This document shows positions 3,050-50,684 of a DNA stretch of 57,793 nucleotides, piece by piece. The DNA lies in NCBI GenBank assembly GCA_934130215.1, contig CAKOXR010000001.1:1-57793 (forward strand). The letters are read 5' to 3'. This DNA comes from an uncultured Bacilli bacterium. GTDB taxonomy: Bacteria > Bacillota_I > Bacilli_A > RF39 > UBA660. The position numbers and the translations under genes are program-made. The notes beneath the pieces were generated by a model that searched no databases, was not told the origin of the DNA, and was given only the letters and a program-made list of their open reading frames with translations. Within the stretch, counting starts at the first letter, position 1; the number at the start of each line of letters is the position of its first letter.

Positions 3050-3078
3050 TTGAAATCGGAAAAAATATGTGGTATTAT
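3050..3078 (+). promoter_or_regulatory. Sigma-A type promoter of the tasA/sipW-like operon
   Basis: TTGAAA (3050-3055), 17-nt spacer, TATTAT (3073-3078), with an extended -10 TG at 3070-3071. Confidence 0.55.
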
Positions 3079-3100
3079 TTATACTAGGAGGAGGATAAAA

Positions 3101-3754
3101 ATGGAAAAAAATAGAAATAATCAAGTTATTGCTGTAATAGCACTTGTTATTGGTATAATTGGATTATCTGTTGGTTTTGCTGCATTTTCAAATGTTTTAA
3201 AAATACAATCTTCTGCTGAAGTAACACCTGATAAATCTACTTTAAATGTTGATTTTTCAAGTTCAAGCACTGAAGTTGCGACAGATGATATTACAGCTGT
3301 TACTACACCAACTACTGTTGTTGCTACAAAAGCTACTATTGATAATACTAATGATCCAACTATTTCCAATTTAAAAGCTACATTTACTGAACCTGGACAA
3401 AAAGCTGTTTATAGTTTTTATGCTTATAATAATGGTAAACTAGATGCTTATTTAAAAAGCATAGTATTTGAGAATGTTACTGGCCAAACATCTAGTAAAG
3501 TATGTAGTAGTAAAGAAGGTACAACTGATGCTTTAGTTCAAAGTGCTTGTAATGGTATTTCTGTTAAAGTTAAAGTTGGAAATGAAGCAGAAACAAGTGG
3601 AAGTGTTGCTAGTATAACTAATCACGAATTAATTAAAGCAAATAGTGAAATGGTTACTGTTACTATTGAATATCAAGCTGATGCAACTAGAGCTGATGGA
3701 GATTTTACTGTATCATTTGGTGATATAATATTGAATTATAGTTCAGTTGATTAA
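3101..3754 (+). CDS. Secreted TasA/camelysin-like beta-sandwich protein with a SipW-type signal peptide
   Basis: AGGAGG RBS then ATG at 3101. The hydrophobic segment ends in GFAAFSNVL, which resembles the SipW-cognate signal motif. Also has PGQKAVYSFYAYNNGKLDAYL (PG..f.v.N.G.ld pattern). Lies directly upstream of a SipW-like peptidase. Confidence 0.5.
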   Translation: MEKNRNNQVIAVIALVIGIIGLSVGFAAFSNVLKIQSSAEVTPDKSTLNVDFSSSSTEVATDDITAVTTPTTVVATKATIDNTNDPTISNLKATFTEPGQKAVYSFYAYNNGKLDAYLKSIVFENVTGQTSSKVCSSKEGTTDALVQSACNGISVKVKVGNEAETSGSVASITNHELIKANSEMVTVTIEYQADATRADGDFTVSFGDIILNYSSVD

Positions 3755-3759
3755 TTTAA

Positions 3760-3787
3760 ATGACACAGTAAGTCTGTGCCATTTTTG
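3760..3787 (+). terminator. Intra-operon hairpin/attenuator after the tasA-like gene
   Basis: ATGACACAG (3760-3768) pairs with CTGTGCCAT (3774-3782) with one mismatch and a 5-nt loop, followed by TTTT. Confidence 0.45.
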
Positions 3788-3803
3788 TTTAAGGAGATTA
3801 TTT

Positions 3804-4901
3804 ATGAAGAAAAGTTATGTTAAATTAATTATTATAAATTTTTTAACAATTTTATTTTGTTTATTTAATTCATTTTATTTTAAAAAAATAAATTCTTTAT
3901 TTTTAACTTTTTTTCTTATAATTTTACTTTTAATTACAAAAATATTGTTTGGATTTGAAAAAGATAAACATCGATATATTAAAGATGTTTGTTTAAAAAT
4001 AGTTATTAATTTATTTATATTTTTGATTTTTTATTATTTAGTTGGTATTTTTATAGGGTTTGCAAAAACTTATAATTTTTCTTCTTTAAAAGCTATAATA
4101 AATATTATATTTTATATTGTTATTAAAGAATATTTAAGATATACTTTAATTACAAAGTCTAGTGAAAGCAAATTTTTATTAATACTTACAACAATAATGT
4201 TTATTTTTATTGATAATACTATTGCTTTTTCAATAAATGGTTTTTTATTTAATAAAAGTACTTTTCTTTTAGTTGCTATTACATTTATTCCATCAATTAC
4301 AGAAAATATTTTATGTTCATGGATGAGTTTTAAATTTGGTTTTAAACCAGTTATGTTGTATTTATTAATTATAAAATTATATCTTTATATTTTACCTATT
4401 ATTCCAAATCCAAATGAATATATATATTCAATAATTTTCTTTTTACTGCCTATAATAATTTTATTTAATATTAAAAAATGGTTAGATAAAGGAGATTTAA
4501 ATATAGTTTTAAATAAAGCAAATATTATTCCATATTTTTTAATTGCTTTTTCTTTGATTTTGATTTATTTTGTTTCAGGTTATTTTAGATATTATGCAAT
4601 TGCGATTGCAAGTGGTTCTATGAATCCTGTAATCAAAAAGGGTGATGTTGTTATTGTTGATCAAAAGTTTAAAAATTTAAAAAAAGGTGATATAATTGCT
4701 TATAGATATAATGGAACTGTAATTGTTCATCGTATTAATGATTTAATTAGAGATAAAAATGATATTATTATTTATACTAAGGGTGATAGTAATAGTTCTT
4801 GTGATAGTTGGAAAGTTGAATATGATATGATAATTGGGGTTATTAATTATAAAATACCTTTAATTGGATATCCGACTGTATGGATTAATAATTATTGGTA
4901 G
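3804..4901 (+). CDS. Archaeal/SipW-type signal peptidase I (S26B) fused to an N-terminal ~280-aa polytopic membrane domain
   Basis: AAGGAG RBS then ATG at 3804. C-terminal catalytic motifs are SGSMNPVIKKGD (Ser), VHRI (His) and KGDSN. The preceding ~280 residues are almost entirely hydrophobic F/I/L-rich segments. Confidence 0.75.
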   Translation: MKKSYVKLIIINFLTILFCLFNSFYFKKINSLFLTFFLIILLLITKILFGFEKDKHRYIKDVCLKIVINLFIFLIFYYLVGIFIGFAKTYNFSSLKAIINIIFYIVIKEYLRYTLITKSSESKFLLILTTIMFIFIDNTIAFSINGFLFNKSTFLLVAITFIPSITENILCSWMSFKFGFKPVMLYLLIIKLYLYILPIIPNPNEYIYSIIFFLLPIIILFNIKKWLDKGDLNIVLNKANIIPYFLIAFSLILIYFVSGYFRYYAIAIASGSMNPVIKKGDVVIVDQKFKNLKKGDIIAYRYNGTVIVHRINDLIRDKNDIIIYTKGDSNSSCDSWKVEYDMIIGVINYKIPLIGYPTVWINNYW

Positions 4902-4912
4902 GGAGGTAATAT

Positions 4913-5965
4913 ATGTTTAAAAAGATGCATTTTTCTTATAATTTTAGATTAATTATAAATTATTTTTTGTTTTTTATTTTTCTAGTTTTAAGTTTTATAA
5001 TGATTTATAATTCTTTAGATATTAAAAAAGAAGAAAATATAAAATATAATGAAAAGGGTAGTATTAATTATAAGGTTTGTTTAAAAGAAAATAATTTTTA
5101 TGAAAATAGTTGTATAGATAATAATATGTCATATATTTCTGGTTTAATTAAAAATATACCTTTATATTTTGATTATAATTTTAAAGTTAATAAAAGCTCT
5201 AATATAATTGTTAAATATGAAGTTAGTTGTAATTTAGTTATTTCCAATATTGAAAATTCTTTAATTTATTTTAATAAAAATTATATATTAGTTCCATTAA
5301 CAGAGTCCATTTATCATAATAATAGTTATAATTTAGTTAATAATGATATTATAATTGATTATGATTATTATAATAATATTGCAAGTAATTTTAAAAGTGA
5401 ATTTGGTGTTGATACTAAGAGTTATTTAGAGGTTATATATACAGTTTATAATGAAATAAATGGTAATATTATATCTCCTAGTGTTAGCTCTATAAATATT
5501 CCTCTTTCACAAAAATCAATTGATATTAATATGAAATCTAATGATCTTTTAAATAGTGGTAATCAAAAAAGTTTTAAATATTCGATTAGTTTAGTTAATA
5601 TTATTTATTTTAGTTTAGGTTTAATTAGTTTTTTATGTTCTTTTATTTTTTTAATTAAGGGTATTAGGTTGTCGTTGTTAGTTTTATCTACTAAAAATGA
5701 ATATGATAAATATATTAATAAAATTTTAAAAGAATATGATAGATTAATTGTTGAGACAACTTCAATTCCTGATTTTAATGATTACAATGTTATTTTAATT
5801 AAAAAGTTTTCAGAATTACTTGATGTTAGAGATAATTTACATTTACCTATAATGTATTATGTTGTTGTTAAACATCATAAATCTTATTTATATATTTTAA
5901 ATAATAATAATTTATATTTACTTACTTTAAAAAGTGTTGATTTTTGTAAAGAGAGGGTAAAATGA
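4913..5965 (+). CDS. Two-TM membrane protein of unknown function (possibly DUF5305-like, a family I recall next to SipW-type peptidases)
   Basis: GGGAGG RBS. N-terminal TM, an extracytoplasmic region of about 200 aa, a second TM (IIYFSLGLISFLCSFIFLI), then a cytoplasmic tail of about 100 aa. Confidence 0.45.
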   Translation: MFKKMHFSYNFRLIINYFLFFIFLVLSFIMIYNSLDIKKEENIKYNEKGSINYKVCLKENNFYENSCIDNNMSYISGLIKNIPLYFDYNFKVNKSSNIIVKYEVSCNLVISNIENSLIYFNKNYILVPLTESIYHNNSYNLVNNDIIIDYDYYNNIASNFKSEFGVDTKSYLEVIYTVYNEINGNIISPSVSSINIPLSQKSIDINMKSNDLLNSGNQKSFKYSISLVNIIYFSLGLISFLCSFIFLIKGIRLSLLVLSTKNEYDKYINKILKEYDRLIVETTSIPDFNDYNVILIKKFSELLDVRDNLHLPIMYYVVVKHHKSYLYILNNNNLYLLTLKSVDFCKERVK

Positions 5966-7440
5966 TTAATAAAAAAATTTTATATTTTATTTTTTTCATT
6001 ATTTTATTTTTATCTATTGGTTTTTCTGCTTTTCAAAATAATTTAAGTATTGATAATATTTTTTTAAATGTTAATATTGATAAAGATATTAGAGTTATGG
6101 GGATTTCTGTTAATGAATCAAAAGATGCTTTTAGTACATATGAAGATTATAATGTTAGTAATATTAAATCAAATGTTACTTTATCTAATAGTAATTCATA
6201 TATTATTTATAAGATTCCTGTTTATAATTTAGGGAATGTTGTTATGGGTATTAGGAGTATAAGTATAAATTATGATAATTTAAGTGTTAGTATTTTAAAT
6301 TATGATTTAAAATCTAAACTTTGTGATGATAAATGTGCTTCTGGTGTAAAAAAAGATTTACTTGTTAAAATATCTTATAAGGATGGATTATTTGATAGTT
6401 TAAATACTTCTTATGATATTAAAATAGATTTTGTTTTTGGAAGAATATTTAATATTGATTATAAAGATATTGATATTTCTTATCCTAAAGAAATAATCGA
6501 GGGTGATACTTTAACTTTAAATATTCCTGATAGAGAAGATAGTTCTTTAAAAGTTTTTATGAATAAAAGAAAGTTAGTTATTGATTCTGATTATCAATAT
6601 TCATCTGGTGTTTTGACTATTCCAAATGTAGATGGTGATATTTCGATGTTTTTTAAATTACCGATTTGTCAAAGAGCAACAGTTCTTCATACTGAGGAGT
6701 GTACAGGTAAATTTTGTGGTGGTATGGGTTTTACTAATGATGGTAAAATGAAAACAACTACAATTACTTATGGTTCATTAGGAATTCAAGGTACTTTAAA
6801 TTCTGGTGATGCTTTTGATTGTGATACCAATGGTGATGGAGAATATAATCCAGAAACAGAAAGATTTTATTATGTTACAACAATGGGTGATGATTCTAGG
6901 GTTGCTGTTTTAATTTATTATAATAATGTTAGTGCTGGTGAACCTAATAATAATAGTTTTTATGCATATGATGATTTTGATGGAAATTGGTTTGGTCCTA
7001 GAGTTGCGATTCAACAACTTCCAACTAGAAGTCAATGGAGTAATATTAGTTTATCAAATACTGAAAGAAAAATAACAAATGAATATGGTACTAATAATAC
7101 TAAAGATAATCATACTTTTCCTAGTGTTTTTAGTTATGATGGTTATTCTGCTAGATTTTTAACTTATCAAGAGTTAAAAAAAGTTGTAAATAATATCCCA
7201 ACTTGGAAAAGTGGTGAATTTAATGATCATTTATATTTATCTGAGAATACTAAGTTTTCTAATGGTAAGGCATCTGTTTTTGATGGATATTGGTTAGAAA
7301 ATCCTCGATATGGTTTACCTACTTATGCTTGGTTTCTTTATACATCTGAAAGAAGGGTACATAGTGCTGATGTTAAAATAAATAATATTTATGGTGTTAG
7401 GCCAGTTATAGAAATTTCATTTGACGATATATTATATTAA
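5962..7440 (+). CDS. Large secreted protein with a SipW-type signal peptide and a C-terminal module ending YGVRPVIEI
   Basis: ATGA overlap with the upstream gene. The signal segment ends in GFSAFQNNL. Contains a Cys cluster CQRATVLHTEECTGKFCGG. The C-terminal pattern YWLENP...AW....YGVRPVI resembles DUF6273-like domains. Confidence 0.6.
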   Translation: MINKKILYFIFFIILFLSIGFSAFQNNLSIDNIFLNVNIDKDIRVMGISVNESKDAFSTYEDYNVSNIKSNVTLSNSNSYIIYKIPVYNLGNVVMGIRSISINYDNLSVSILNYDLKSKLCDDKCASGVKKDLLVKISYKDGLFDSLNTSYDIKIDFVFGRIFNIDYKDIDISYPKEIIEGDTLTLNIPDREDSSLKVFMNKRKLVIDSDYQYSSGVLTIPNVDGDISMFFKLPICQRATVLHTEECTGKFCGGMGFTNDGKMKTTTITYGSLGIQGTLNSGDAFDCDTNGDGEYNPETERFYYVTTMGDDSRVAVLIYYNNVSAGEPNNNSFYAYDDFDGNWFGPRVAIQQLPTRSQWSNISLSNTERKITNEYGTNNTKDNHTFPSVFSYDGYSARFLTYQELKKVVNNIPTWKSGEFNDHLYLSENTKFSNGKASVFDGYWLENPRYGLPTYAWFLYTSERRVHSADVKINNIYGVRPVIEISFDDILY

Positions 7441-18797: not shown

Positions 18798-19934
18798 ATG
18801 TCTGCAATAATTACATTATTATGTTTTATATTAGTATTAGGTGTAACAGTATTTATTCATGAATTAGGTCATTTTTTATTTGCTAAAAAAGCAGGTATAT
18901 ATTGTTATGAATTTTCATTAGGAATGGGACCTGTTATATGGAAATTTAATCGTAAAAATGATGAAACAACTTATTCTTTAAGATTATTTCCTATAGGTGG
19001 ATTTGTTCAAATGGCTGGTGAAGCTGTTGATTTGGATGAAAATATACCAGAAGATAAAAGAATGCAAAGTAAAACTTGGATGCAAAGATTTTTAACTGTA
19101 TCAGCAGGTGTTATATTTAATTTTTTACTTGCTTTGGTTATATTTTTTACAGTTGGTATGATAACTGGTACTGATGATCAAAAAGCATATGTTGGAAATA
19201 TTAGTGAAAATTTTAAGGTAAGTTCTACTAATCTTAAAGTAGGGGACCAAATATTAAAAATAAATGGAAAAAGTAGTTGGTCAAGTAATAAAACATTACT
19301 ATTATTAATGGTTAATAGTGGTAATAATATATCAGTTGAAGTAAAACATGCTGATGGAACTAAAGAATTAATTAATATTGAACCAACTTTAGTAAAAGAA
19401 ATAAAAGATGAAAATGATAATATTAAATATGAAATAGTTAATGAAAAAAATGATGAAACTACATATAAATTTGGTATTGGTTTAACTCGTAAATCAACAA
19501 GTGTAAAAGTAAAAAATGTTAAGGATTTCTTTAATAATTTATATCATTCTATAATTTATGCATTTGTTAATTTTGTAAGTTTATTAGACCAAATGATTTA
19601 TACAATCTTTTATTTATGTACAGGTAAAATATCACTTTCTAATTTAAGTGGACCAGTTGGTATTTATCAAGTAGTTGGTGAAAGTGCAAAATATGGATTT
19701 ATAAATGTTGTTTATTTAATAGGTTATATATGTGTTAATGTAGGTTTTATAAATTTACTTCCACTTCCAGCTTTTGATGGTGGTAGAGTATTCTTTATGA
19801 TAATTGAAGCAATTAGAAAAAAACCTATTAGTCCTAAAGTAGAAAATATAATTCATGCTGTTGGATTAGTATTATTAATGATTCTAATGGTTGTTATAAC
19901 ATTTAATGATATTGTTAGAATTTTTATAAAATAA
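18798..19934 (+). CDS. rseP: Site-2 (M50) regulated intramembrane metalloprotease
   Basis: HELGHF zinc motif, a PDZ-like middle region, and NLLPLPAFDGG. Confidence 0.9.
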   Translation: MSAIITLLCFILVLGVTVFIHELGHFLFAKKAGIYCYEFSLGMGPVIWKFNRKNDETTYSLRLFPIGGFVQMAGEAVDLDENIPEDKRMQSKTWMQRFLTVSAGVIFNFLLALVIFFTVGMITGTDDQKAYVGNISENFKVSSTNLKVGDQILKINGKSSWSSNKTLLLLMVNSGNNISVEVKHADGTKELINIEPTLVKEIKDENDNIKYEIVNEKNDETTYKFGIGLTRKSTSVKVKNVKDFFNNLYHSIIYAFVNFVSLLDQMIYTIFYLCTGKISLSNLSGPVGIYQVVGESAKYGFINVVYLIGYICVNVGFINLLPLPAFDGGRVFFMIIEAIRKKPISPKVENIIHAVGLVLLMILMVVITFNDIVRIFIK

Positions 19935-25017: not shown

Positions 25018-25713
25018 TTAAATTTGAGATTTATTTTTAATAAATTCACGGAGCATTTTAGTAAGTGCTCTTTTTTCGATCCTTGAAACATAACTTCTTG
25101 ATATATTTAATTTTTTAGCAATATCTTTTTGAGTTGTTTCTTCATAATCGTTTAGACCATATCTTTTTTCAATTATTTCTTTTTCTCTTTTTGTTAAAAC
25201 TTTCATATATTTTTTTAAATTATTTATATTATTTTGTGTATGGATTGATAACGCATATTCTGGATCTGGTGTTTTTAGAATATCCAAAAATGTTATTTCA
25301 TTTCCTTCTTTATCGAATCCTATTGATTCATTTAAACTTATGTTTTTTTTATTTTTTTTATTTGATCTAAAGTACATTAGTATTTCATTTTCAATGCATC
25401 TGGCACAATATGTTGTAAGCTTTGTTTCTTTTTTTTCAGAATAACTATCAATTCCTTTTATTAAACCTATTGTTCCAATTGATATTAAGTCATCTGCTTC
25501 ATCTACTTTATGTTCATATTTTTTTACTATATGTGCGATTAATCTTAAATTATGTTCAATTAATTTATTTCTAGCTTCTTTAGATCCTTCTTTTAATTCT
25601 TTAATACATTTTTCTTCATCTTCTTTTGATAAAGGATCAGGAAATACATTATTTGAGTATGCTGCTGTAAAAATATATAGATTTTTAAATAAAAATAATA
25701 ATTTTTTAAACAT
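25018..25713 (-). CDS. sigK: Sporulation-type sigma factor, best resembling pro-SigK
   Basis: NNVFPDPLS..., LIEHNLRLIAHIVKKY, DLISIGTIGLIKGI, CIENEILMYFR and ISRSYVSRIEKRALTKM line up with B. subtilis SigK as I remember it. GGAGG RBS precedes the ATG at 25713. Confidence 0.75.
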   Translation of the reverse strand: MFKKLLFLFKNLYIFTAAYSNNVFPDPLSKEDEEKCIKELKEGSKEARNKLIEHNLRLIAHIVKKYEHKVDEADDLISIGTIGLIKGIDSYSEKKETKLTTYCARCIENEILMYFRSNKKNKKNISLNESIGFDKEGNEITFLDILKTPDPEYALSIHTQNNINNLKKYMKVLTKREKEIIEKRYGLNDYEETTQKDIAKKLNISRSYVSRIEKRALTKMLREFIKNKSQI

Positions 25714-25788
25714 TTTTACCTCCATTATTATTTTATGCAATTTTACATTTTTTTTATAAGATTACTAGATTTTTTAAATTTAATACTG

Positions 25789-25794
25789 TATAAT
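25789..25794 (+). promoter_or_regulatory. Putative -10 element of pilin-like gene A
   Basis: TATAAT 20 nt upstream of the ATG. The same element sits at the same spacing upstream of paralogue B (28222-28227). Confidence 0.35.
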
Positions 25795-25813: not shown

Positions 25814-27856
25814 ATGAAAAAAGGTTTTACTTTAGTTGAACTAATAGTAGTTATTGTTTTACTTTCATTAATAACGGTTTTTACATTTCCAAGTATAAAT
25901 AAATTATTAAATGAAAGAAAAGAAAAATTATATAATATTCAGATAGAAAATATAAAATTATCTGCTCAAAATTATATAAATAAATATCAATTATTTAATA
26001 CAAGTGATAAAGTTATGGTTACACTTTGTCAATTAAAACAAAGTGGATTTACGGATGAAAATATAAAAGATCCAAGAACAGGTGTTTTAATTTCTGATAA
26101 TTCTATGGTAATTGCTTTAAAAAATACAAATGAATATACATTTATGCCTGGTTTAGATAGCACAACATCTTGTTCAGTAAATGATAGTATTCTTTATGAA
26201 TATATTGAAGTTGGAAGCGAATATATTTTAAAAAATGATGATAGCAAATATACAATTACAATATATCTAAATAATGAGGAAGTAGATAGTGTAGATACAA
26301 GTGAAATAAATACTTATGTTATAAAATATGTTTCTAGCAATGAAACAATAAATAAATATGTATATATTATTGATACAACAGGACCTAATATTGAATATGT
26401 TAATGAACAAACATATAGAGATAAAAATGGTTATGAAGAAAGTAGTAAAAAAATAGGTGAGGGAACAATTTTTATAAGTGCTAGTCAGAATAGTACTTTT
26501 GTTCCTTTCCCTGCTACGGCTATTGATAAAGGTGAGGGTGAAACAACACTTGAAATAACATCTAATGTTAATTTAAAAATACCTGGTATATACTATATTA
26601 CTTATTCAAGCAAAGATTCCAAAGGTAATGCAACGACTAAAAATCAAACTATTGAAGTATATGATGATGTAGCACCTGTAATAGATAATATTTCAGGAAT
26701 ACCAAATGGTAAAACATCTAATAGTATAGTATTAACAGTTGATGCCCATGATAATGAATCAGGATTACATCCAAGAGGAGCATATTCATTTGATGGTGGT
26801 GCGACATGGCAAGTAAGTGATACAATTAATGTTACAGAAAATAAAACATTAAATATAGTAGTTAGAGATGCAGCTTTAAATGAAACAAGAAGAACTGTTA
26901 CAATTAATAATATATTAAAAGATGATAAAACATTATCATTTAATATTAAAAAAGGAACTATGAAAAATAGTGGCTGGTATGTAGATAATGTTGAAGTTGA
27001 AATAAAACCTTTAGTAAATGAAGAATATTTTAGTTCTTATAGTTATTGTATAAGTTCAAATACTAATTGTACACCTAATAAAGAAATTAGAACAATTAAT
27101 AGCACTACTGAAGTAATTAGTCAAAGTACAACAGGATTATATATATGTGGATATGTTACTAAAAAAGATGGTACAAGAACTTCTCAAGTATGTAGTATGA
27201 ATATTAAAATTGATAAAGAATTACCTACTTGTGAAATTGAATATCAATCAAATTATGATATATCACTTGGTTTACCAGGTAAAATCATTGTCAAAGATAG
27301 TATAAGTGGTGCTGCTACTAATCCAATTTCATTTTTGTTAAAAAGTTCAAAGACTTATGAAATATACGATAAAGCTGGTAATAGAAATACTTGTGAAGTA
27401 AAAGTAAAAGTAACATTACAACATAGATATAAAACATGTGCTGGCTATAAATCTTGTGCAAATGCTGATTATTGTGGAAGAAATACTTATAGCTGTAATT
27501 GTAGTGATTGCAAGTATGGATCAAATACTTGTAGAGGAGGCTGCAATAGAAGTAAATGTTCTCGATATTATTGCTGTTCTAATTTAGCAGGTACTCGTTG
27601 TAAATCTCTTAGTCGTCCAGGCAATTATAAATATTGTAGTTGTACTGATTATAAATGTACTGATTGGGATTCATGTAAATATGGATCAAATACTTGTTCT
27701 TATGGATGTGATACATGTCAAGGAGATGCTAAATCGTGTGCTAATCCAACATGTGGATGTGCTTCATATTCATATTCTGAATGGACACTTGGGGCATGTA
27801 CAAATGTACCTGGCAAAACTTGTGAAACTCGTGGTGGATATTTAAGAGGTGATTAG
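25814..27856 (+). CDS. Large modular type IV pilin-like protein A: prepilin signal, Ig-like modules, Cys-rich C-terminal module
   Basis: MKKG|FTLVELIVVIVLLSLITVF has Gly at -1, Phe at +1 and Glu at +5. Ig-like modules include TAIDKGEGETTLEITSNVNLKIPGIYYITY and DNESGLHPRGAYSFDGGATWQ. By my count there are 24 Cys in the last ~140 aa. Confidence 0.75.
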   Translation: MKKGFTLVELIVVIVLLSLITVFTFPSINKLLNERKEKLYNIQIENIKLSAQNYINKYQLFNTSDKVMVTLCQLKQSGFTDENIKDPRTGVLISDNSMVIALKNTNEYTFMPGLDSTTSCSVNDSILYEYIEVGSEYILKNDDSKYTITIYLNNEEVDSVDTSEINTYVIKYVSSNETINKYVYIIDTTGPNIEYVNEQTYRDKNGYEESSKKIGEGTIFISASQNSTFVPFPATAIDKGEGETTLEITSNVNLKIPGIYYITYSSKDSKGNATTKNQTIEVYDDVAPVIDNISGIPNGKTSNSIVLTVDAHDNESGLHPRGAYSFDGGATWQVSDTINVTENKTLNIVVRDAALNETRRTVTINNILKDDKTLSFNIKKGTMKNSGWYVDNVEVEIKPLVNEEYFSSYSYCISSNTNCTPNKEIRTINSTTEVISQSTTGLYICGYVTKKDGTRTSQVCSMNIKIDKELPTCEIEYQSNYDISLGLPGKIIVKDSISGAATNPISFLLKSSKTYEIYDKAGNRNTCEVKVKVTLQHRYKTCAGYKSCANADYCGRNTYSCNCSDCKYGSNTCRGGCNRSKCSRYYCCSNLAGTRCKSLSRPGNYKYCSCTDYKCTDWDSCKYGSNTCSYGCDTCQGDAKSCANPTCGCASYSYSEWTLGACTNVPGKTCETRGGYLRGD

Positions 27857-28183
27857 ATGAAAAAATATATTCCGTATATTATGATTTGCTTAATTATTGT
27901 GATTACTATTATTTCTATTTTAGGTATTAATTATTCTAAAAAGAATAATATTAGTTTAGATGAAAAGATGAAAAATTATTGTGAACAAATTTTTAAAAAT
28001 GAAGAAATTGGATCTAATGAGGTATATGTTTCTTTAAAATCCATGAAGGAAAGATATAATTTAGATATTTCTGATTTTACTAATCCTAAACATAATTGTT
28101 CTCTTGAAAATAGTATGGCAAAAGCAAGTAAAGTAAACGGTAAGTTAACTTGTTCTATTAATTTAATTTGTGAAAATATGTAA
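27857..28183 (+). CDS. Small membrane-anchored Cys-containing protein between the pilin-like paralogues
   Basis: Its ATG directly abuts the TAG of gene A. N-terminal hydrophobic helix and four extracytoplasmic Cys. Confidence 0.55.
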   Translation: MKKYIPYIMICLIIVITIISILGINYSKKNNISLDEKMKNYCEQIFKNEEIGSNEVYVSLKSMKERYNLDISDFTNPKHNCSLENSMAKASKVNGKLTCSINLICENM

Positions 28184-28246
28184 AAGTTTAGTTTATACTA
28201 GACTTTTTTGTTTTTAATTTGTATAATTTAGATAGTAGGTGGTCTA

Positions 28247-30283
28247 ATGAAAAAAGGTTTTACTTTAGTTGAGTTGATAGTGGTTATTGTTTTACTTTCA
28301 TTGATAACAGTTTTTACATTTCCTAGTATAAATAAGTTATTAATTGAAAGAAAAGAAAAATTATATAATGTTCAAGTTGAAAATATTAAATTATCTGCTC
28401 AAAATTATATAAATAAAAATCATTTATTAAGTAGTAATGATAAAGTATTTGTTACTCTTTGTCAGTTAAAACAAGCTGGTTTTACTGATGAAAATATTAA
28501 AGATCCTAGAACTGGTGTTTTATTTCCAAATGATTCAAAAGTTATTGCTTTAAAAGACAATTCAGAATATGAATTTGTTTTAGGGGAGGGTGGAAATACA
28601 ACTTGCTCTAAAAATGATAATACTTTGTTTGAGTTTATTGAGGTTGGTAGTACTTATATAGAAAGTATGAATAAGAATAAGTATAATATTACAATTTATT
28701 TAGATAATAAAGAAGTTGATAATATTGATACTAGTTGTGAAGACACTTATGTTATTAAGTATGAGGATTCTAATAAAGAGATAATTTATAAATATGTTTA
28801 TGTAATAGATACAAGTGGTCCAGATATTAGTTATGTTAATGAAATTGAGATGGTTGATGAAAATAATAATAAATTTAAAAGTCGTGAAATTGGTAAGGGT
28901 ACAATTGTTTTACTAGCAAATCAATATAATATTTTTACGGCTTATAAAGCAAAATCAATTGATAGTAACGATGGAGAAGTAGAGGTTACTTCTAAATCTA
29001 ATGTTAATTTAAAAATACCTGGTGTTTATTATATTACTTATACTAGTACTGATGAAAAAGGGAATACAACAACAAAAAATCAAAAACTTGAAGTTATTGA
29101 TAATGTAAAACCAGTAATTGATAGTATTGATGGAATTCCAAATAATAAAACTACAGGTACTATTACAGTTACTGTAAAAGCTCATGATAATGAATCAGGA
29201 TTACATCCTAGGGGTGCTTATTCGTTTGATGGTGGAAATACATGGCAAGTAAGTAATACAATTAATATTGTAGATAATAAAACTATTGATATTGTTGTTA
29301 GAGATTCTGCTTTAAATAAAATTAATAAAACTATTACAATTAATAATATTTATAAAGATGATAAAAGTTTAACTTTTAATATTGTAAATGGAACTTTAAA
29401 AAATAATGGTTGGTTTATAAATGATGTTAGGTTAGAGATTAAACCTGTTGCGAAAGAAAATTTTAAATCTTATAGTTATTGTATAGGTTCTGATTCTAGA
29501 TGTACTCCAAATAAAACTATATATTCATTAACTAGTACTTATGAAACTATTAATTATAATACAAAAGGAGTATATGTTTGTGGGTATGTTACTAAAAGTG
29601 ATTATACAAAAACAGATATAGTTTGTAGTATGAATATTAAGGTAGATAAAGAAAAACCAACATGTTATCCTTCATATAACTCTAATTATGATATAACATC
29701 AGGTGTTTCTGGAAATATTATTGTAAATGATGCAATTAGTGGACCTACAACAAGTTCAATTCCATTCTTTTTAAGAAGTAATCAAACATATAAAGTTTAT
29801 GATAATGCAGGAAATGAAAATACTTGTGAAGCAAAAGTTAGAAGTGAAACTCAATATCAAACAAGATCGTGTGCAAGATATAAAAGCTGTAAAAGTGAAA
29901 AATACTGTGGAAATGAATACTATGCTTGTAATTGTAGTGATTGTAAAATACAATTAAGATCATGTGTTGGAGGATGGAAAGGTACCAATTGCACTCGTTG
30001 GAAATGTTGTAATAAAAAATCAAAAAAAATACCGTGTTTTTATACTAGTGATCCAGGAAGGCGTACAAATTGTAATTGTGTAAAAACAGAAAAATCAGAT
30101 TGGGACGATTGCCTACATCAAAGCACTCAATGTGCATGGGGCTGTGATGAATGTAAAGGTGGAGCTCGTTCATGTGTTAATCCAACATGTGGATGTAAAA
30201 CATGGAATTATAGCGGTTGGAATAACGGAAGCTGTAATGGAAGAAGCAATTGTAGTGAAAGAACAGTTTATTATCCAGGATAA
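28247..30283 (+). CDS. Large modular type IV pilin-like protein B, paralogue of A
   Basis: The first 33 residues are identical to A and the two stay collinear throughout. By my count there are 22 Cys in the C-terminal ~140 aa. Confidence 0.75.
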   Translation: MKKGFTLVELIVVIVLLSLITVFTFPSINKLLIERKEKLYNVQVENIKLSAQNYINKNHLLSSNDKVFVTLCQLKQAGFTDENIKDPRTGVLFPNDSKVIALKDNSEYEFVLGEGGNTTCSKNDNTLFEFIEVGSTYIESMNKNKYNITIYLDNKEVDNIDTSCEDTYVIKYEDSNKEIIYKYVYVIDTSGPDISYVNEIEMVDENNNKFKSREIGKGTIVLLANQYNIFTAYKAKSIDSNDGEVEVTSKSNVNLKIPGVYYITYTSTDEKGNTTTKNQKLEVIDNVKPVIDSIDGIPNNKTTGTITVTVKAHDNESGLHPRGAYSFDGGNTWQVSNTINIVDNKTIDIVVRDSALNKINKTITINNIYKDDKSLTFNIVNGTLKNNGWFINDVRLEIKPVAKENFKSYSYCIGSDSRCTPNKTIYSLTSTYETINYNTKGVYVCGYVTKSDYTKTDIVCSMNIKVDKEKPTCYPSYNSNYDITSGVSGNIIVNDAISGPTTSSIPFFLRSNQTYKVYDNAGNENTCEAKVRSETQYQTRSCARYKSCKSEKYCGNEYYACNCSDCKIQLRSCVGGWKGTNCTRWKCCNKKSKKIPCFYTSDPGRRTNCNCVKTEKSDWDDCLHQSTQCAWGCDECKGGARSCVNPTCGCKTWNYSGWNNGSCNGRSNCSERTVYYPG

Positions 30284-38386: not shown

Positions 38387-39493
38387 ATGACATATTTGGA
38401 TTATTCTGCTACAACTCCTGTTAATAAAGAAGTTTTGGATAGTTTTAATAAAGTTACAAATGATTTTTTTGGAAATCCTAATTCTTTACATAGATTAGGG
38501 GTTGAAGCAAAAGAAATAATTGATGAAGCAACAAAACAAATTGCAAATATTTTAAATATTAAAGAAGAAGAAATAATTTATACAAGTGGTGCTTCTGAAA
38601 GTAATAATACAGCAATTAAAGGAATTTGTTTTAAATATCAAAATAGAGGTAAAAAAATATTAACAACAAAACTAGAACATTCTAGTATATATGGAGCTTT
38701 AGGATATTTACAAAAAAATGGTTTTATTGTTGATTTTATTGATTTAGATGAAAATGGTGAAGTTGATTTAGTTGATTTAAAAACTAAATTAACAAGTGAT
38801 ACTATATTAGTTACAATAAGTCATGTAAATAGTGAACTTGGAATTAAACAAAATATAAATGAAATTGGTAAATTAATTCATGAAAATAGTAAAGCTTATT
38901 TTCATGTTGATATGACTCAATCAATTGGTAAAATAAATGTATCATTTGATAATATAGATCTTGCTTCTTTTACAGCACATAAAATTTATGGTTTAAAAGG
39001 AATTGGGGCTTTATATTTAAAAAAAGGTATTGTTATTGATAACTTAATTCATGGGGGTAAAAGTACTAGTATATATAGAAGTGGTACTCCTTCTCCTGCT
39101 TTAATTGTTTCGTTTTCTAAAGCTTTAAGATTAATTTATGATAATATAGATGATAAATATAAACATGTTGAATCTTTAAATAAATATTTAAAAGATAATT
39201 TAAACTGTTATATTAATAGTACTTCATCATCTATACCACATATTTTAAATTTATCTGTTTTAGATATTAAACCTGAAACTTTATTACATGCTTTAGAAGA
39301 ATATAATATATTTATATCTACTCAAAGTGCTTGTTCAACAGGTGATACTAGTACTAGTGTGTATGCTGTTACAAATGATATTTTAAGAGCAAAACATAGT
39401 ATAAGAATTAGTTTATCTTACTTAACTACATTTGATGAGGTTGAATATTTTATAAAATGTTTTAATGAGGTTATTTTGAAATATGGAAAATAA
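38387..39493 (+). CDS. Cysteine desulfurase (class V aminotransferase, NifS/IscS-like)
   Basis: SGASESNN, FTAHKIYG (PLP lysine) and STQSACSTG (active-site Cys loop). Confidence 0.85.
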   Translation: MTYLDYSATTPVNKEVLDSFNKVTNDFFGNPNSLHRLGVEAKEIIDEATKQIANILNIKEEEIIYTSGASESNNTAIKGICFKYQNRGKKILTTKLEHSSIYGALGYLQKNGFIVDFIDLDENGEVDLVDLKTKLTSDTILVTISHVNSELGIKQNINEIGKLIHENSKAYFHVDMTQSIGKINVSFDNIDLASFTAHKIYGLKGIGALYLKKGIVIDNLIHGGKSTSIYRSGTPSPALIVSFSKALRLIYDNIDDKYKHVESLNKYLKDNLNCYINSTSSSIPHILNLSVLDIKPETLLHALEEYNIFISTQSACSTGDTSTSVYAVTNDILRAKHSIRISLSYLTTFDEVEYFIKCFNEVILKYGK

Positions 39494-39728
39494 AATAACC
39501 GTTGTTGAGATAAGTGCTATATGGTGTCCTAGTTGTTTAGTAATGAGACCTATATATGATAAAATATATAAAAAATATAATTTATCTGTTATTAAATTAG
39601 ATTATGATACTGATTCAATTAATGAATATAATGTTGGTAATATATTACCAGTTTTAATAATCAATGATAAAAGATTTATTGGTGAAGTTAATATAAAGGA
39701 AATAGAAAATTATTTGGAGAATTTATGA
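39483..39728 (+). CDS. Small thioredoxin-fold protein (WCPSC)
   Basis: 81 aa, no signal peptide, CxxC motif WCPSC. Overlaps the desulfurase stop. Confidence 0.7.
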   Translation: MENKITVVEISAIWCPSCLVMRPIYDKIYKKYNLSVIKLDYDTDSINEYNVGNILPVLIINDKRFIGEVNIKEIENYLENL

Positions 39729-40189
39729 AAAAAATAGTATTTATTTTATTATTTATGATATTTATAAATGTTAATGCAAAAGTAAATGTTTCATTATTTT
39801 ATGGAGAAGGATGTCCTTATTGTAAGAATTTTGAAGAATTTGCTTATAAAAATAGTGAAAAATATGATTTTAATCTTATAAAATATGAAGTTTGGTCTAA
39901 TAAAAAAAATAATGATTTATTAAAAAAAGTTGCTTCTAAATTTGGTGATACTGATATAGGTATTCCTTATATAGTTATTGGTAATAAAAGAATTATTGGA
40001 TGGACTAGTGCTAAAACAAAATTATTTGTTGATTTAATTAATAAACAAAAAGAATATGAAATGTGTGATATTATAAATGATAACTCTTGTACAAAAGATA
40101 GTGGTACAAATATATCAATTTTTAAAGGAACCGTATTTGCAACATATATTAAAAATTATGCTACAATTGTTTTAAATTTATTTGGATAG
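39725..40189 (+). CDS. Secreted thioredoxin/glutaredoxin-fold CxxC protein
   Basis: Signal peptide, GCPYC motif, IPYIVIGN (cis-Pro loop region). ATGA overlap with the upstream gene. Confidence 0.65.
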   Translation: MKKIVFILLFMIFINVNAKVNVSLFYGEGCPYCKNFEEFAYKNSEKYDFNLIKYEVWSNKKNNDLLKKVASKFGDTDIGIPYIVIGNKRIIGWTSAKTKLFVDLINKQKEYEMCDIINDNSCTKDSGTNISIFKGTVFATYIKNYATIVLNLFG

Positions 40190-40198: not shown

Positions 40199-41356
40199 AT
40201 GAAGAAGTTAATTTTAATTTTTATAAGTTTTTTTATAATATTTAATGTAAGTGCTAAAACAGCAAAAGTTTATTTATTTTATGGAGATGGTTGTCCACAT
40301 TGTTCTCAATTTGAGAAGTTTGCTAACAAAAATAAAGATAAATATAATTTTGAAATTATTTCTTATGAAACATGGTATAATGATGAAAATAGTGCTTTAT
40401 TAGATAAATTATATGAAAAATTTAATGATAATAAAGCAGGAGTCCCTTATATTGTTATAGGAAATCAAAGAATTATTGGTTGGAATACTGCTAATGAAGA
40501 AAAGTTTATTTCAATGATTAAAAAAAATAGACAAAATGATATTTGTGATATTGTAGAAGATGTTTTAAATGGAACAAATAAATGTACTTTAGGCTTAGAT
40601 ATTGATGGTAAAGTAAAAATACCTTTTATTGGTTATGTTGAACCAGAAGAAGCTTCTTTAGGTTTGATTGCAATGATAATCGGACTTGTTGATGGATTTA
40701 ATCCATGTGCAATGTGGGTTTTATTATTTTTACTTTCAGTTTTAATTAATATGAAAGATAGAAAAAGAATGTGGGTTATTGGTTTTACTTTTCTATTTAC
40801 AAGTGGTTTAGTATATTTTCTTATTATGGGATCTTGGGTAACTGTTGTATCTAAGATGAGTGATATTATTTTATTAAGAAATATAATTGCTATAATTGCT
40901 GTAATAGGGGGTATATATAATTTATATAACTTTTTTAAAGTTAGTCCAACAGGTTGTAATGTAACAGATAATAAAAAAAGAAAAAAAATAATGGATCGTA
41001 TAAAAGAATTTTGTTTAGAAAAAAACTTTTTGCTTGCTATTATTGGAACTATTGGTTTAGCTGTTTCTATTAATGTAGTAGAACTTGCTTGTTCTGCAGG
41101 ATTACCTATAGTTTTTTCAGAAATTCTTAGTGTTAATAATTTAAGTGGTTTTGAACATTTTATATATTTATTAATTTATATAATTTTCTTTATGTTAGAT
41201 GATATTATTATTTTTATATTAGCGATGACTACAATGAAATTAACTGGAATATCAAATAAATATAGTAAATATTCTCATTTAGTAGGTGGTTTAATTATGA
41301 TAGTTGTTGGAATACTTTTACTTTTTAAACCAGAATGGATAATGTTAAGTTTTTAG
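40199..41356 (+). CDS. Secreted thioredoxin-fold CxxC domain fused to a DsbD/CcdA-like multi-TM domain
   Basis: The N-terminal ~120 aa are paralogous to the previous gene (GCPHC, VPYIVIGN). The membrane part carries GFNPCAMW and ELACSAGLP, which look like TM-embedded Cys motifs. Confidence 0.6.
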   Translation: MKKLILIFISFFIIFNVSAKTAKVYLFYGDGCPHCSQFEKFANKNKDKYNFEIISYETWYNDENSALLDKLYEKFNDNKAGVPYIVIGNQRIIGWNTANEEKFISMIKKNRQNDICDIVEDVLNGTNKCTLGLDIDGKVKIPFIGYVEPEEASLGLIAMIIGLVDGFNPCAMWVLLFLLSVLINMKDRKRMWVIGFTFLFTSGLVYFLIMGSWVTVVSKMSDIILLRNIIAIIAVIGGIYNLYNFFKVSPTGCNVTDNKKRKKIMDRIKEFCLEKNFLLAIIGTIGLAVSINVVELACSAGLPIVFSEILSVNNLSGFEHFIYLLIYIIFFMLDDIIIFILAMTTMKLTGISNKYSKYSHLVGGLIMIVVGILLLFKPEWIMLSF

Positions 41357-47439: not shown

Positions 47440-49023
47440 ATGAAAAAACAAATTTTATTTTTATCGATTTTATTTTTATTATTTTTTATATTATCTTATA
47501 CATTTTCTATATTTAATAGTTTTATTAATGGAGATATAAGTGCGAATATTAAAGATTGGGTTTTTAAGGTTAATATTATTGATGCTATTGTAGAAAATGA
47601 TGGTTATAAATTAAATTTAAATGGTACTAGTGGCGAGATTAATATAAATATTAATACTATAGGTGGTAATAAGAGTGTTGATTATTCTATAGAATTAATT
47701 GGGGATAATTCTATTGAGTATTATGAAGATAATAATTATACTCAATTAATTCATAATAATATCTATAATGATAGTGTTGATCATAATTCAAATATTAATA
47801 AGAAAATATATTATAAATCAAATAATAATAGTGATATTTTTATTAAAACAAAAGCTAGTATAAAAGAATATGCGATTATGAAGAATGGGAATTATTATAG
47901 TAACAATACTGAATTTTGGAATAATAATTATAAACCTTATATTAAAACAATTAACTTTAGTAATGATTTGAGTAATTTACCAAGTAATTGTACTATAGAA
48001 AATTTATGTTGGGATATATCTGAAAATGAAAATCAGAAGAAAAAGGTATATGGTTATTTAGTTGATACTGGGTTAAAAGATAGTACTGATAATACTAAAC
48101 CATTATATGATTTGTATATAGTTAGCAAACATGAAATATTTGCACCAATAAATTGTGGAAAAATATTTTCATTTTATAAAACTGAAAATAATAAAGATAT
48201 ATCTAATTTAACTCAAATTAATTTTAATAATAATTTTAATACCTCAAATGTTACAAATATGAATAATATTTTTGCATTGTGTAAACAATTAAAGAGTTTA
48301 GATTTAAGTAATTTTAATACGGCAAATGTAACAGATATGAATGCTATGTTTAATTTTTGTAGTTCTATAGTTAATTTAAATTTGAGTGGTTTTAATACCT
48401 CTAATGTAACAAATATGACTCAAATGTTTGGGGACTGTAAAGCTTTAACAAGTTTAGATTTAAGTGGCTTTAATACAATGAATGTAACAAATATGAATTT
48501 TATGTTTAATTATTGTAGTTCTTTAGTAAATTTAAATTTAAGTAGTTTTAATACTGTGAAAGTAACAAGTATGCATAGTATGTTTACTCAATGTTCATCA
48601 TTGACAAGTCTAGATTTAAGTAGTTTTAATACCTCAAATGTAACAAATATGTCATATATGTTTCAATCATGTTCAAAGTTAAAAACTTTAAATCTAAATA
48701 ATTTTGATACGACAAAAGTTACTGATATGAGAAGTATGTTTTTTAGATGTACAAGTTTATATAATTTATATATTAATAATTTTAATACGGCAAATTTAGT
48801 AAATACTTTCAGAATGTTTAGCAATTGTTATTCTGCAGTTGCAACGATAACCATAAGAAATAGTAATGTTAATGACTATAGTTCAATGTTTTCCAATGCT
48901 GCTATCTATTCAGGAGCTAAAATAATTGTTAATTATACATCAAATACAAGTGCTATAGTTGATAGTATGATTGCAACAAAATCAGCAAGTAGTAATGTTA
49001 TAAAAGGAAGTTTAGTTTCATGA
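47440..49023 (+). CDS. Surface protein with DUF285/BspA-type 26-residue leucine-rich repeats and a SipW-type signal peptide
   Basis: Signal segment ends in YTFSIFNSFINGDISANIKDWVFKVN. About eight repeats of FNTSNVTNMxxMFxxCSSLxSLDLSx. Confidence 0.8.
   Translation: MKKQILFLSILFLLFFILSYTFSIFNSFINGDISANIKDWVFKVNIIDAIVENDGYKLNLNGTSGEINININTIGGNKSVDYSIELIGDNSIEYYEDNNYTQLIHNNIYNDSVDHNSNINKKIYYKSNNNSDIFIKTKASIKEYAIMKNGNYYSNNTEFWNNNYKPYIKTINFSNDLSNLPSNCTIENLCWDISENENQKKKVYGYLVDTGLKDSTDNTKPLYDLYIVSKHEIFAPINCGKIFSFYKTENNKDISNLTQINFNNNFNTSNVTNMNNIFALCKQLKSLDLSNFNTANVTDMNAMFNFCSSIVNLNLSGFNTSNVTNMTQMFGDCKALTSLDLSGFNTMNVTNMNFMFNYCSSLVNLNLSSFNTVKVTSMHSMFTQCSSLTSLDLSSFNTSNVTNMSYMFQSCSKLKTLNLNNFDTTKVTDMRSMFFRCTSLYNLYINNFNTANLVNTFRMFSNCYSAVATITIRNSNVNDYSSMFSNAAIYSGAKIIVNYTSNTSAIVDSMIATKSASSNVIKGSLVS
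48234..48850 (+). repeat. About eight tandem 78-nt (26-codon) coding repeats
   Basis: The periodic FNT[SA]NVT[ND]M..MF..C..L..L[DN]LS block is read directly from the translation. Confidence 0.8.
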
Positions 49024-49113: not shown

Positions 49114-49818
49114 ATGGATTTTAAAATTGAAGAAATAAAAAATAATAATAAAAAAATCTATAATTATGATATTAAGAAATTATTAAAAAAAGATACAGTT
49201 AATTTTAGTGAAGCAAGATTTGTACTTGAAACATTAGGTAATGAAGTATCACAAGAAAATTTTGATTTCTTTGTTTTATTTATTAAATATAGAAAATTTA
49301 ATATAAAAAAATATATAATAAATAATAAAAATAATTTTTTTAGAATTAAAAGTAAATTTAAATTATTAAAAACAAAACAAATAATAGGGGTATATTTATA
49401 TTATAATAAAGAAATATTTTTACTAGGGCATTCATTAAGTTTAAGTAATATGTTAAAAGAATTATTTTTAAAATTAAGATATATAAATCAAGAACGAAGA
49501 ATCAAATTTATAAAACAAAATCCAGAATTATCCAAAAATAATGAACAAATATATTTAATATATAAAGAAAATATATTAAAAATAAAAAATAAAAAATTTT
49601 ATAATGAAAAAAAAGATTATTTTGAATCAAATATAGATGCTTATGAAGTTTCATTAAAACAAATGATTGGAATATGTGAAAGATTTGATTTAAATAATAA
49701 ATTATTAAACAAAATAAAAAAAGAATTAACAATAATACAAAATAGAAGAAATAAAAAAGAATATGAAGAAATAAAAAATAAATTAAAAATAGAATTCATA
49801 AATTTTGGTGAAATATGA
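49114..49818 (+). CDS. Lys/Asn-rich cytoplasmic protein of unknown function, translationally coupled to a radical SAM enzyme
   Basis: GGTGA RBS then ATG at 49114. No TM or signal peptide. Its stop overlaps the downstream ATG (ATGA). Confidence 0.5.
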   Translation: MDFKIEEIKNNNKKIYNYDIKKLLKKDTVNFSEARFVLETLGNEVSQENFDFFVLFIKYRKFNIKKYIINNKNNFFRIKSKFKLLKTKQIIGVYLYYNKEIFLLGHSLSLSNMLKELFLKLRYINQERRIKFIKQNPELSKNNEQIYLIYKENILKIKNKKFYNEKKDYFESNIDAYEVSLKQMIGICERFDLNNKLLNKIKKELTIIQNRRNKKEYEEIKNKLKIEFINFGEI

Positions 49819-50615
49819 GATTTAAAAGAATATATGTAGAACTTTCAAATATATGTAATTTGAACTGTTCTTTTTGTTCTAAAGATAAAAGAAAAAAAAG
49901 AAGTTTAACAATTGATGAATTTAAATTAATAATAAAAGAAATAAAACCATATACTAACCTTATATATTTACATATAAAAGGAGAACCATTATTATATAAA
50001 AACATAGAGCAAGTATTTGAGTATGCTTTAAAAAATAATATTAAAATCAAAATAACAACAAACGGAATATATTTAAATAAATATATTGATCTAATAAATA
50101 AATATAATAATATAGTCCAAATAAATATATCAATAATGTGTGAAAATAAAGAAAAAGATTATTTAAATAAAATATTTGAAACTTCTTCTAAAATAAAAAC
50201 GACTATAGTATATAGAATATGGTTAAATAAAAATAATAATTTATATTTAGATAAAATATTAAAATATTATAAAAAAGAAAATACAGGTAAAAATATAAAA
50301 TTAAATGACCATATTTATTTAGATAAAGATATAGAATTTATATGGCCAAATGAAGGAAAAAAAGATAAAACAAAAGGAATATGTTATGGCTCAAGAAGCC
50401 ATATCGGTATATTATCAAATGGAGAAGTAGTACCTTGTTGTTTAGATTCAGAAGGAATATTATCATTCGGAAATATATTTGATAAACATTTAGAACAAAT
50501 ACTAAATTCAAATGAATTTAAACTATTTAATGAAACAATGAAAAAAGGTATTATGAAAGAAGAATTATGTCAAAAATGTAATTTTAAAAACAGATTAACT
50601 AAACATAATGTTTGA
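49815..50615 (+). CDS. Radical SAM enzyme with a SPASM/twitch-like C-terminal Cys cluster
   Basis: CX3CX2C in ELSNICNLNCSFCS. C-terminal GICYGS...VVPCCLDSEG...ELCQKCNF. Confidence 0.8.
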   Translation: MRFKRIYVELSNICNLNCSFCSKDKRKKRSLTIDEFKLIIKEIKPYTNLIYLHIKGEPLLYKNIEQVFEYALKNNIKIKITTNGIYLNKYIDLINKYNNIVQINISIMCENKEKDYLNKIFETSSKIKTTIVYRIWLNKNNNLYLDKILKYYKKENTGKNIKLNDHIYLDKDIEFIWPNEGKKDKTKGICYGSRSHIGILSNGEVVPCCLDSEGILSFGNIFDKHLEQILNSNEFKLFNETMKKGIMKEELCQKCNFKNRLTKHNV

Positions 50616-50668: not shown

Positions 50669-50684
50669 GAGATTGGAGATTTAT

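Follow-up and report, generated by a model that had tools for sequence, protein, structure and literature searches.

Two adjacent genes on a stretch of DNA from an uncultured Bacilli bacterium (NCBI GenBank assembly GCA_934130215.1, contig CAKOXR010000001.1, positions 1 to 57,793; hereafter the window) encode proteins that begin like type IV pilins and end in about 145 residues crowded with cysteine. What is this C-terminal module, which an earlier note made from the sequence alone could place in no recognized family, and what might it do at the end of a pilin-like protein? The note's view stands: Pfam, NCBIfam, PDB sequences, and Foldseek comparisons with PDB and BFVD all left the module without a match. 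Because the curated libraries and the PDB hold no counterpart, and because a profile search of 1.84 billion representative proteins recovered just 10 clusters, it is a rare, undescribed domain family; that it is also a novel disulfide-rich one is very probable. As to its form and use, we lean toward a hairpin stalk laddered by disulfides and carrying a hypervariable tip, which a pilin would display for adhesion or ligand binding.

The two genes, here called paralogs A and B, are tandem open reading frames (ORFs), both on the + strand:

25814-27856 (+): paralog A, a 680-aa modular type IV pilin-like protein, from family scores and homolog starts
25814-25900 (+): prepilin (class III) signal peptide and hydrophobic alpha1-N of A, MKKG/FTLVELIVVIVLLSLITVFTFPSI, with Gly at -1, Phe at +1 and Glu at +5
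28247-30283 (+): paralog B, a 678-aa modular type IV pilin-like protein, from its ORF, family scores and a homolog search

An ORF finder begins A at 25799, giving an ORF of 685 aa; since every homolog starts with MKKGF, which falls at nt 25814, the latter is taken to be the true start.

A and B almost certainly have a pilin-like modular architecture. Both carry the prepilin motif MKKG/FTLVE followed by some 20 hydrophobic residues, as in class III signal peptides, and they are the only genes in the window to do so. Their Pfam N_methyl scores (22.9 and 23.0, cut-off 21.2) and TIGR02532 scores (24.3, cut-off 16.3) lie above the cut-off for both paralogs. Matches of the N-terminal part to pilin sequences in the PDB (phmmer) are weak and mostly confined to alpha1, the clearest being to geopilin (E = 0.0025) and to PilE1 of Streptococcus sanguinis (8pfb; E = 0.006, residues 5-85). 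Residues ~130-535 contain Ig-like domains, with Bact_surface_Ig-like (PF16403) above its cut-off (35.8 bits on A) and hints of HYR, Big and OmpL47-type domains. N_methyl, PF16403 and a Cys-rich module of ~145 aa are thus combined in a single polypeptide, as in modular pilins, a class surveyed at more than 1,200 proteins in 264 architectures, many of whose modules have no database signature and for which exposure at the pilus tip has been argued (Raynaud et al., 2021, PMC8179133). The module position can also be filled differently: on the same scaffold, protein P0060 carries a DUF285/leucine-rich repeat (LRR) module in that place and P0084 a true thrombospondin type 1 (TSP1) repeat, while P0061-63 end in modules that could not be assigned. 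Such a slot on a shared scaffold fits the idea of the modular pilin (PMC8179133). As a kind of protein, the modular type IV pilin is already known; it is the terminal module that is new to the curated libraries and the PDB. The earlier note had placed the module distally if the proteins are pilins, and with pilin-like carriers an exposed distal position would indeed be the natural reading.

Two observations on relatives and neighbors may be added here. The window encodes a PARCEL/DUF285 repeat surface protein (47440-49023, +; TIGR02167, 216.8 bits) whose repeats are of the same type as the C-terminal module of P0060, and since this repeat occurs both on that protein and on a pilin, adhesin modules appear to be common to pilin and non-pilin carriers. 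One module-bearing relative, P0111 (L007, 8001-10352), has a prepilin-like motif, GITLVQ, with Gln rather than the canonical Glu at +5; its gene lies downstream of a two-component system.

The module itself is C-terminal in both paralogs and can be divided as follows:

27413-27508 (+): base strand and N-arm of module A (TLQHRYKTCAGYKSCANADYCGRNTYSCNCSD; 5 Cys), AlphaFold2 predicted local distance difference test (pLDDT) 93-95
27509-27532 (+): CxYGxNTC unit 1 of module A, CKYGSNTC, by motif
27533-27673 (+): variable tip of module A, 47 aa with 8 Cys and a net charge of +6, holding the CC doublet and the apex loop
27674-27697 (+): CxYGxNTC unit 2 of module A, CKYGSNTC, by motif
27698-27754 (+): C-arm of module A (SYGCDTCQGDAKSCANPTC; 4 Cys), by motif and Cys pairing
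27755-27853 (+): conserved aromatic end of module A (GCASYSYSEWTLGACTNVPGKTCETRGGYLRGD; 3 Cys), predicted to pair with the base strand
29846-30280 (+): module B as a whole, 22 Cys
29846-29941 (+): base and N-arm of module B
29942-29965 (+): unit 1 of module B
29966-30109 (+): variable tip of module B, 6 Cys, net charge +6
30110-30133 (+): unit 2 of module B
30134-30190 (+): C-arm of module B
30191-30280 (+): end of module B

Translation of the ORFs bears out the note's cysteine counts, both even: 24 in the last ~140 residues of A (residues 547-675 of the 685-aa ORF) and 22 in the equivalent part of B. At the Cys frequency of all long ORFs in the window (1.56%), the probability of at least 24 Cys in 140 residues is 5e-18. 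The first Cys codons are at nt 27437 and 29870; the module start given earlier, 27435, is one base off codon phase, and by homology the modules begin at 27413 in A and 29846 in B. That the Cys skeleton is kept while the rest diverges was also well seen, in that each of B's 22 Cys falls on a Cys of A in the alignment, and the segments are only 17-53% identical outside the Cys-Cys columns. The motifs quoted for the skeleton and the CC doublet are present, with one correction, the spacing written as DWD.C.....C being C-x6-C and not C-x5-C. The two additional cysteines of A, C44 and C82 of the module, sit on opposite arms, as would be expected for one added rung. In composition, module A has no Ile, Phe or Met, and a single Val and a single His, which leaves it without an aliphatic core and without His-Cys metal sites.

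Paralog A had further been credited with an internal duplication and with a C-terminal RGD tripeptide that might be chance. The duplication (SDCKYGSNTCRGGC and DSCKYGSNTCSYGC) is real, with 27 of 42 nt identical over 14 codons, but it is not special to A: in nearly every member of the family each half of the module contains such a unit, for which reason it is best taken as two facing arms present family-wide, and not as a recent event in A. The ...LRGD ending does look like chance. Orthologs end in LKGD, LKGE, LRGE, LRG or YYPG, and RGD as a functional motif of A was ruled out on this lack of conservation.

Searches for the family were wide and yielded little. Neither isolated module matched any Pfam family at E<=1, and the sole NCBIfam match at that threshold was a sub-threshold one of module B to VlpA_Nterm (E = 0.068); a full-length scan of nine module-bearing relatives at E<=10 gave no relevant match in the module region. 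No Pfam or NCBIfam profile thus identified the module as EGF, metallothionein, zinc ribbon, dockerin or another curated Cys-rich domain. Against PDB sequences, nothing relevant was found by phmmer with the single sequence or by hmmsearch with two profiles, one built on the entire module and one on its C-terminal end (E<=10). Foldseek with the model of module A gave, at best, long hairpins of pore-forming toxins in the PDB (E = 0.15, TM<0.2) and phage proteins in BFVD (E = 1.6). Word-indexed searches with the module alone or its profile found one or two proteins only, and the family was recovered solely by full-length and exhaustive profile searches: the former, with the whole protein, gave ~58 proteins with this tail, all from metagenome assemblies, and the latter (HMMER, with a 16-sequence profile) the 10 clusters mentioned above, at E<=1e-3. 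A scan of metagenome contigs was likewise queried with full-length proteins. The resulting alignments are shallow (12-16 sequences), and every relative that could be traced is from a metagenome assembly or a metagenome-assembled genome (MAG), the closest ones from human gut; the closest genome, at 96% identity, is a MAG labeled "uncultured Bacilli bacterium" from a Hadza human-gut sample. In a literature search, neither an account of such a Cys-rich module on a pilin nor a counterpart to a two-arm architecture lengthening by paired insertions was found.

If the module has so few relatives, what do they have in common? The number of cysteines varies greatly, and its parity hardly at all: all 36 distinct modules of the main set have an even number of Cys (14, 16, 18, 20, 22, 24 or 26). 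The largest, in P0112, has 56 Cys in 356 residues; the complete ORF of this protein (L008, 5832-9209) encodes a 1125-aa pilin-like protein, the public gene call (402 aa) being truncated by a run of N in the contig. A separate lineage of 1464-1474 aa, found by the contig scan (L014-L017), has 18. A Cys count biased toward even numbers is established as a computational sign that exported proteins are disulfide-bonded (PMC2823432; PMC12453122), and an even number, as for a fully disulfide-bonded extracellular domain, is what is found here. The earlier note's suggestion that Cys spacing might define a family, pursued here by profile search, holds in part, since homologs keep the logic of the cysteines and fixed positions occur at the module ends only. 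These two ends are the only parts conserved in sequence, the start as C..Y..C...CG and the finish as C....CGC..W...W..G.C....C.[RK]..Y. Between them the plan is fixed: a base, an N-arm, a CxYGxNTCxGG unit, a variable tip, a second unit, a C-arm, and the aromatic CGC..W..W..C..C.R..Y end. Both arms are runs of short C-x4-C units (C-x4-C(G) in the N-arm), unit 1 follows the pattern C-x-[YT]-G-x-N-T-C-x-G-G and unit 2 the pattern C-x-[YT]-G-x-N-T-C, and the variable middle region measures 43-84 aa (228 aa in P0112), with a number of Cys that varies, always by pairs.

The arms are matched. In all 17 lineages the N-arm has exactly one Cys more than the C-arm, in size classes (3,2), (4,3), (5,4), (7,6) and (8,7); the tip has an even count in all 17, and the end three Cys without exception. 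The lengths of the two arms are also correlated (r = 0.976), on landmarks curated by motif. This choice of unit landmarks by motif, on which the arm-count rule rests, counts against it, as does the fact that an automatic regular expression misplaced the CxYGxNTC units and then showed no arm correlation. Because the landmarks were hand-chosen, a landmark-free test was run, in which the first Cys and the last three were dropped and the vector of Cys spacings was compared with its own reverse. The spacing is mirror-symmetric, with a deviation of 438 compared to 640 +/- 30 in permutations (z = -6.7, 0 of 5000), values that overstate independence because the sequences are phylogenetically related. 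In P0112, about 20 spacing pairs are mirrored, including irregular ones such as (8,8), (7,7) and (2,6)/(6,2), in nested inner and outer arms. Nested pairing of Cys across the arms and units keeps the sums of paired positions (i+j) within a range of 2 in A and B, at 128-130 in A; for the extra C44-C82 rung of A the sum, made by hand, is 126.

Structure prediction gives a similar picture for module A. The AlphaFold2 model from a 16-sequence alignment (mean pLDDT 88.5, predicted template modeling score 0.44) is a long beta-hairpin, with two very long strands, residues 23-56 and 74-106, and base strands at 2-12, 116-121 and 136-141. The ends of the long strands (23 with 106, and 56 with 74) sum to 129-130, the same register as the nested Cys ladder. 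A two-armed ladder topology is on the whole the probable one.

Variation is concentrated in the tip. Its non-Cys identity is 24%, compared to 43-61% for the arms and end, making it the most divergent segment of the family. In a sister genome, two paralogs on the same contig (P0030 and P0003) agree completely (100%) up to residue ~470 or so and have only ~45-50% identity across their final ~210 residues, a pattern suggestive of shaft gene conversion or of an exchange of heads; A and B of the window diverge from end to end. The combination of a constant shaft, variable tips and these signs of recombination suggests a part in host or partner recognition in an uncultured human-gut lineage. That the tip is an adhesin or ligand binder on a pilus is a reasonable conjecture, to which we give a little less than even weight.

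Put together, these parts could work as follows. The prepilin signal peptide and hydrophobic alpha1 helix would be the carrier, and the several Ig-like domains a shaft. The last ~145 residues would form an almost core-less domain held by 11-12 intramolecular disulfides, with the first strand and the aromatic C-terminal end closing its base beside the last Ig domain. From this base the N-arm and C-arm would run antiparallel, side by side, cross-linked rung by rung, so placing the variable, basic middle sequence at the far tip, likely the ligand-contacting surface of an adhesin or receptor-binding head. A disulfide ladder might render such a thin projection rigid and protease-resistant in the gut, and the two paralogs would present two different tips on a similar shaft. 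In this scheme the cysteines are presumed, from their number and arrangement, to form disulfides; incorporation of A and B into a pilus and the existence of a ligand are presumed likewise, and the function of the tip we can purely infer.

Several points weigh against this reading, beyond those already raised for the shallow alignments, the arm landmarks and the permutations. For the longer-armed P0049 module, AlphaFold2 reached a pLDDT of only 51.6, with both arms below 50 and the base closure as the one confident part. One member of the separate lineage, L015, has an odd Cys count, the single case found, through a change of CGC to CGW on a contig (ERZ779673...NODE-874) with a coverage of 1.7x; this is probably a sequencing error, yet formally it is an exception to the even-count rule. 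The 57.8-kb window encodes no type IV pilus ATPase, platform protein or prepilin peptidase, and the flanks of 19 related loci contain no Walker A motif of a secretion ATPase (T2SSE). Finally, a gut-anaerobe lineage such as the host would be expected to avoid cysteine in exported proteins (PMC2823432; PMC12453122). The earlier note had called such Cys density unusual for an exported protein of low-GC Gram-positives, and it is indeed atypical in Firmicutes and obligate anaerobes (PMC2823432; PMC12453122).

The window (G+C ~22%) otherwise carries ordinary chromosomal genes, including those for penicillin-binding proteins (PBPs), Mur ligases, FtsW/RodA, tRNA synthetases and the sporulation sigma factor. 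Features near the pilin-like genes are:

18798-19934 (+): M50 peptidase near the pilin genes
25018-25740 (-): sporulation sigma factor SigK with its pro-sequence, divergent from A (TIGR02846 above cut-off)
25787-25794 (+): extended -10-like box TGTATAAT, followed by a sequence like a ribosome-binding site (RBS), GGTAGGTG, upstream of A; a putative promoter, by consensus match only
27857-28183 (+): 108-aa bitopic membrane protein with an N-terminal transmembrane (TM) segment and 4 Cys, starting one base past the stop codon of A
28220-28227 (+): second copy of the TGTATAAT box and RBS, upstream of B, by sequence comparison
39483-39728 (+): 81-aa cytoplasmic thioredoxin (WCPSC; weak family match, below cut-off)
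39725-40189 (+): 154-aa exported thioredoxin-fold protein (CPYC) with a signal peptide (weak family match, below cut-off)
40199-41356 (+): 385-aa exported protein (signal peptide) in which a CPHC thioredoxin fold is joined to a multi-TM domain containing GFNPC (weak match to the LysE/DsbD clan, below cut-off)

Since SigK and an M50 peptidase are encoded, the host is apparently a spore-former. The two boxes belong to a duplicated segment of ~55 nt that includes both TGTATAAT and GGTAGGTG, one copy standing ahead of each paralog. The gene for the 108-aa membrane protein is conserved after module-bearing pilin genes in L001, L002, L003 and L006, and a homolog follows the 56-Cys pilin at the distant locus L008 (9221-9625; BLASTP E = 5e-9); the protein has no family match in Pfam or NCBIfam. 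That this ORF might be a degenerate pilin was considered and dropped, BLASTP finding no significant similarity to the pilin domain. The last three genes form a thiol-disulfide cluster ~9 kb downstream of the pilin genes, also present in L001; in L006 the downstream region differs. By its gene content the cluster looks like an extracytoplasmic oxidoreductase/isomerase relay, and its products are plausible candidates for folding catalysts, the association with the pilins being presumed from proximity.

Two other loci in the window may be recorded. At 3050-7440 (+) is a SipW/archaeal-type signal peptidase I fused to a long N-terminal region (384 aa), in a cluster with a DUF5305 protein and two ORFs without a family match; this may be a separate, signal-peptidase-dependent surface-fiber locus. 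At 49815-52217 (+), a radical SAM/SPASM protein stands beside an AMP-binding enzyme and a phosphopantetheinyl transferase; two GT8 glycosyltransferases come next, and the group may be a small cluster for modification or biosynthesis.

Could A and B be something other than pilus subunits? The pilin-like N-terminus might serve only as an anchor or export signal, with the Cys-rich end cross-linking a cell- or spore-surface layer between molecules. Cysteine-rich proteins are typical of the outer layers of spores (coat, exosporium), and the surroundings are suggestive: no type IV filament machinery lies near any of the 19 loci, sigK is directly upstream in divergent orientation with the M50 peptidase near, and the P0111 gene is ~3.5 kb from two CotZ-like genes. 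The neighborhoods consist, however, of ordinary housekeeping genes that differ between lineages, the box upstream of A is an extended -10 of housekeeping type and not obviously a sigma-K promoter, and orphan pilin genes remote from their machinery are common. The parity of Cys region by region, the matched arms and the mirrored spacing point to pairing within one molecule, and we consider a cross-linked surface layer improbable. Binding of metal by the cysteines, as Zn or Fe-S type clusters with the C-x4-C pairs of both arms building Cys4 sites, is quite unlikely. An anaerobic, reducing habitat would suit it, and recurrence of C-x4-C in both arms means that matched arms fit two-arm Cys4 sites as well as disulfides; but neither the totals of 14, 18, 22 and 26 nor the tip counts of 2 and 6 can be divided by four, which favors disulfides over an arrangement of Cys4 metal sites throughout, and a model of Zn(Cys4) sites alone was ruled out on the many such counts. 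His is moreover almost absent, the domain is extracytoplasmic, and exported CPYC and CPHC thioredoxin-fold proteins are encoded near. A mixed arrangement of metal and disulfides in the module is possible.

There is also the question of whether the module is a known Cys-rich domain that has diverged very far: TSP1, EGF or laminin-EGF, a TNFR or furin-like repeat, or granulin. Its C-terminal end (CGCESWSSWSSWSFSGC...CRTRTYY in P0058) is reminiscent of TSP1 with its layers of W-x-x-W and Arg, a true TSP1 repeat is found on P0084, a distant pilin of the same type, and DR5, a TNFR, is among the weak Foldseek matches. With no Pfam match at E<=1 for the window modules or at E<=10 for the nine full-length relatives, nothing from PDB profile searches at E<=10, and Foldseek values of E>0.1 and TM<0.2, however, this is very improbable. 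Membership of TSP1 in particular was tried by hhalign and rejected (probability 36% over 14 columns only, using a small TSP1 alignment partly entered by hand).

If the disulfide-laddered hairpin with a variable tip is correct, several things follow. The fold would grow by matched 5-residue Cys units in both arms, from 7 disulfides in ~120 residues to 28 in 356, and a new domain family, probably with a new architecture (a closed, two-armed ladder), would join the modules grafted onto type IV pilins. It would depart strikingly from the exclusion of cysteine from exported proteins of Firmicutes and obligate anaerobes, and would raise the question of how a gut anaerobe oxidizes and isomerizes 12-28 disulfides outside the cell; a dedicated extracytoplasmic pathway of oxidative folding and isomerization in a strict anaerobe would be implied, for which the CPYC and CPHC proteins are candidates. 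Rigid, core-less scaffolds with a variable tip would also be attractive for binder engineering. The fullest form of the idea, a length-adjustable "cystine-ladder" hairpin fold class with a hypervariable tip on the type IV pilus tips of uncultured, spore-forming gut Bacilli, is speculative, and we think it rather unlikely to hold in every part.

How does such a module compare with known systems? Its likeness to TSP1 (PF00090) lies in an aromatic motif of the W-x-x-W type near the C-terminus, with Cys and basic residues after it, and in the elongated, extracellular, disulfide-bonded layers that the module is presumed to form, as TSP1 does; the module lacks the CSxTCG motif and six-Cys pattern of TSP1, and the resemblance covers ~15 of ~145 aa. 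TNFR cysteine-rich domains (CRDs), furin-like/EGFR repeats and granulin are core-less disulfide units stacked as a rigid rod for display or binding. The module shares with them small units without a hydrophobic core, presumably stabilized by disulfides, but theirs run in one chain direction, whereas here the chain appears to go out and back with matched arms, and there is no sequence or Foldseek similarity between them and the module. Theta-defensins, protegrin, tachyplesin and gomesin are free, membrane-acting peptides of ~18 residues with two or three rungs. These cystine-ladder hairpin peptides resemble the proposed fold of the module in having antiparallel strands tied by successive cross-strand disulfides and little or no hydrophobic core; here, by contrast, the ladder would be a domain of 120-356 residues that belongs to a large surface protein, is closed at its base, varies at its tip and counts from ~7 to more than 20 rungs, with no sequence relationship to the peptides.

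The nearest comparison for the whole proteins is with PilB and PilC of S. sanguinis, modular pilins that, like A and B, come from a monoderm host, carry a vWA and a lectin module, respectively, and are thought to be exposed at the pilus tip and to bind ligands (PMC8179133; PMC9934059). For A and B, in contrast to these, incorporation into a pilus is presumed and no machinery genes are linked; the shaft consists of several Ig-like domains, and the place of the vWA or lectin fold is taken by an undescribed domain with 14-56 Cys.

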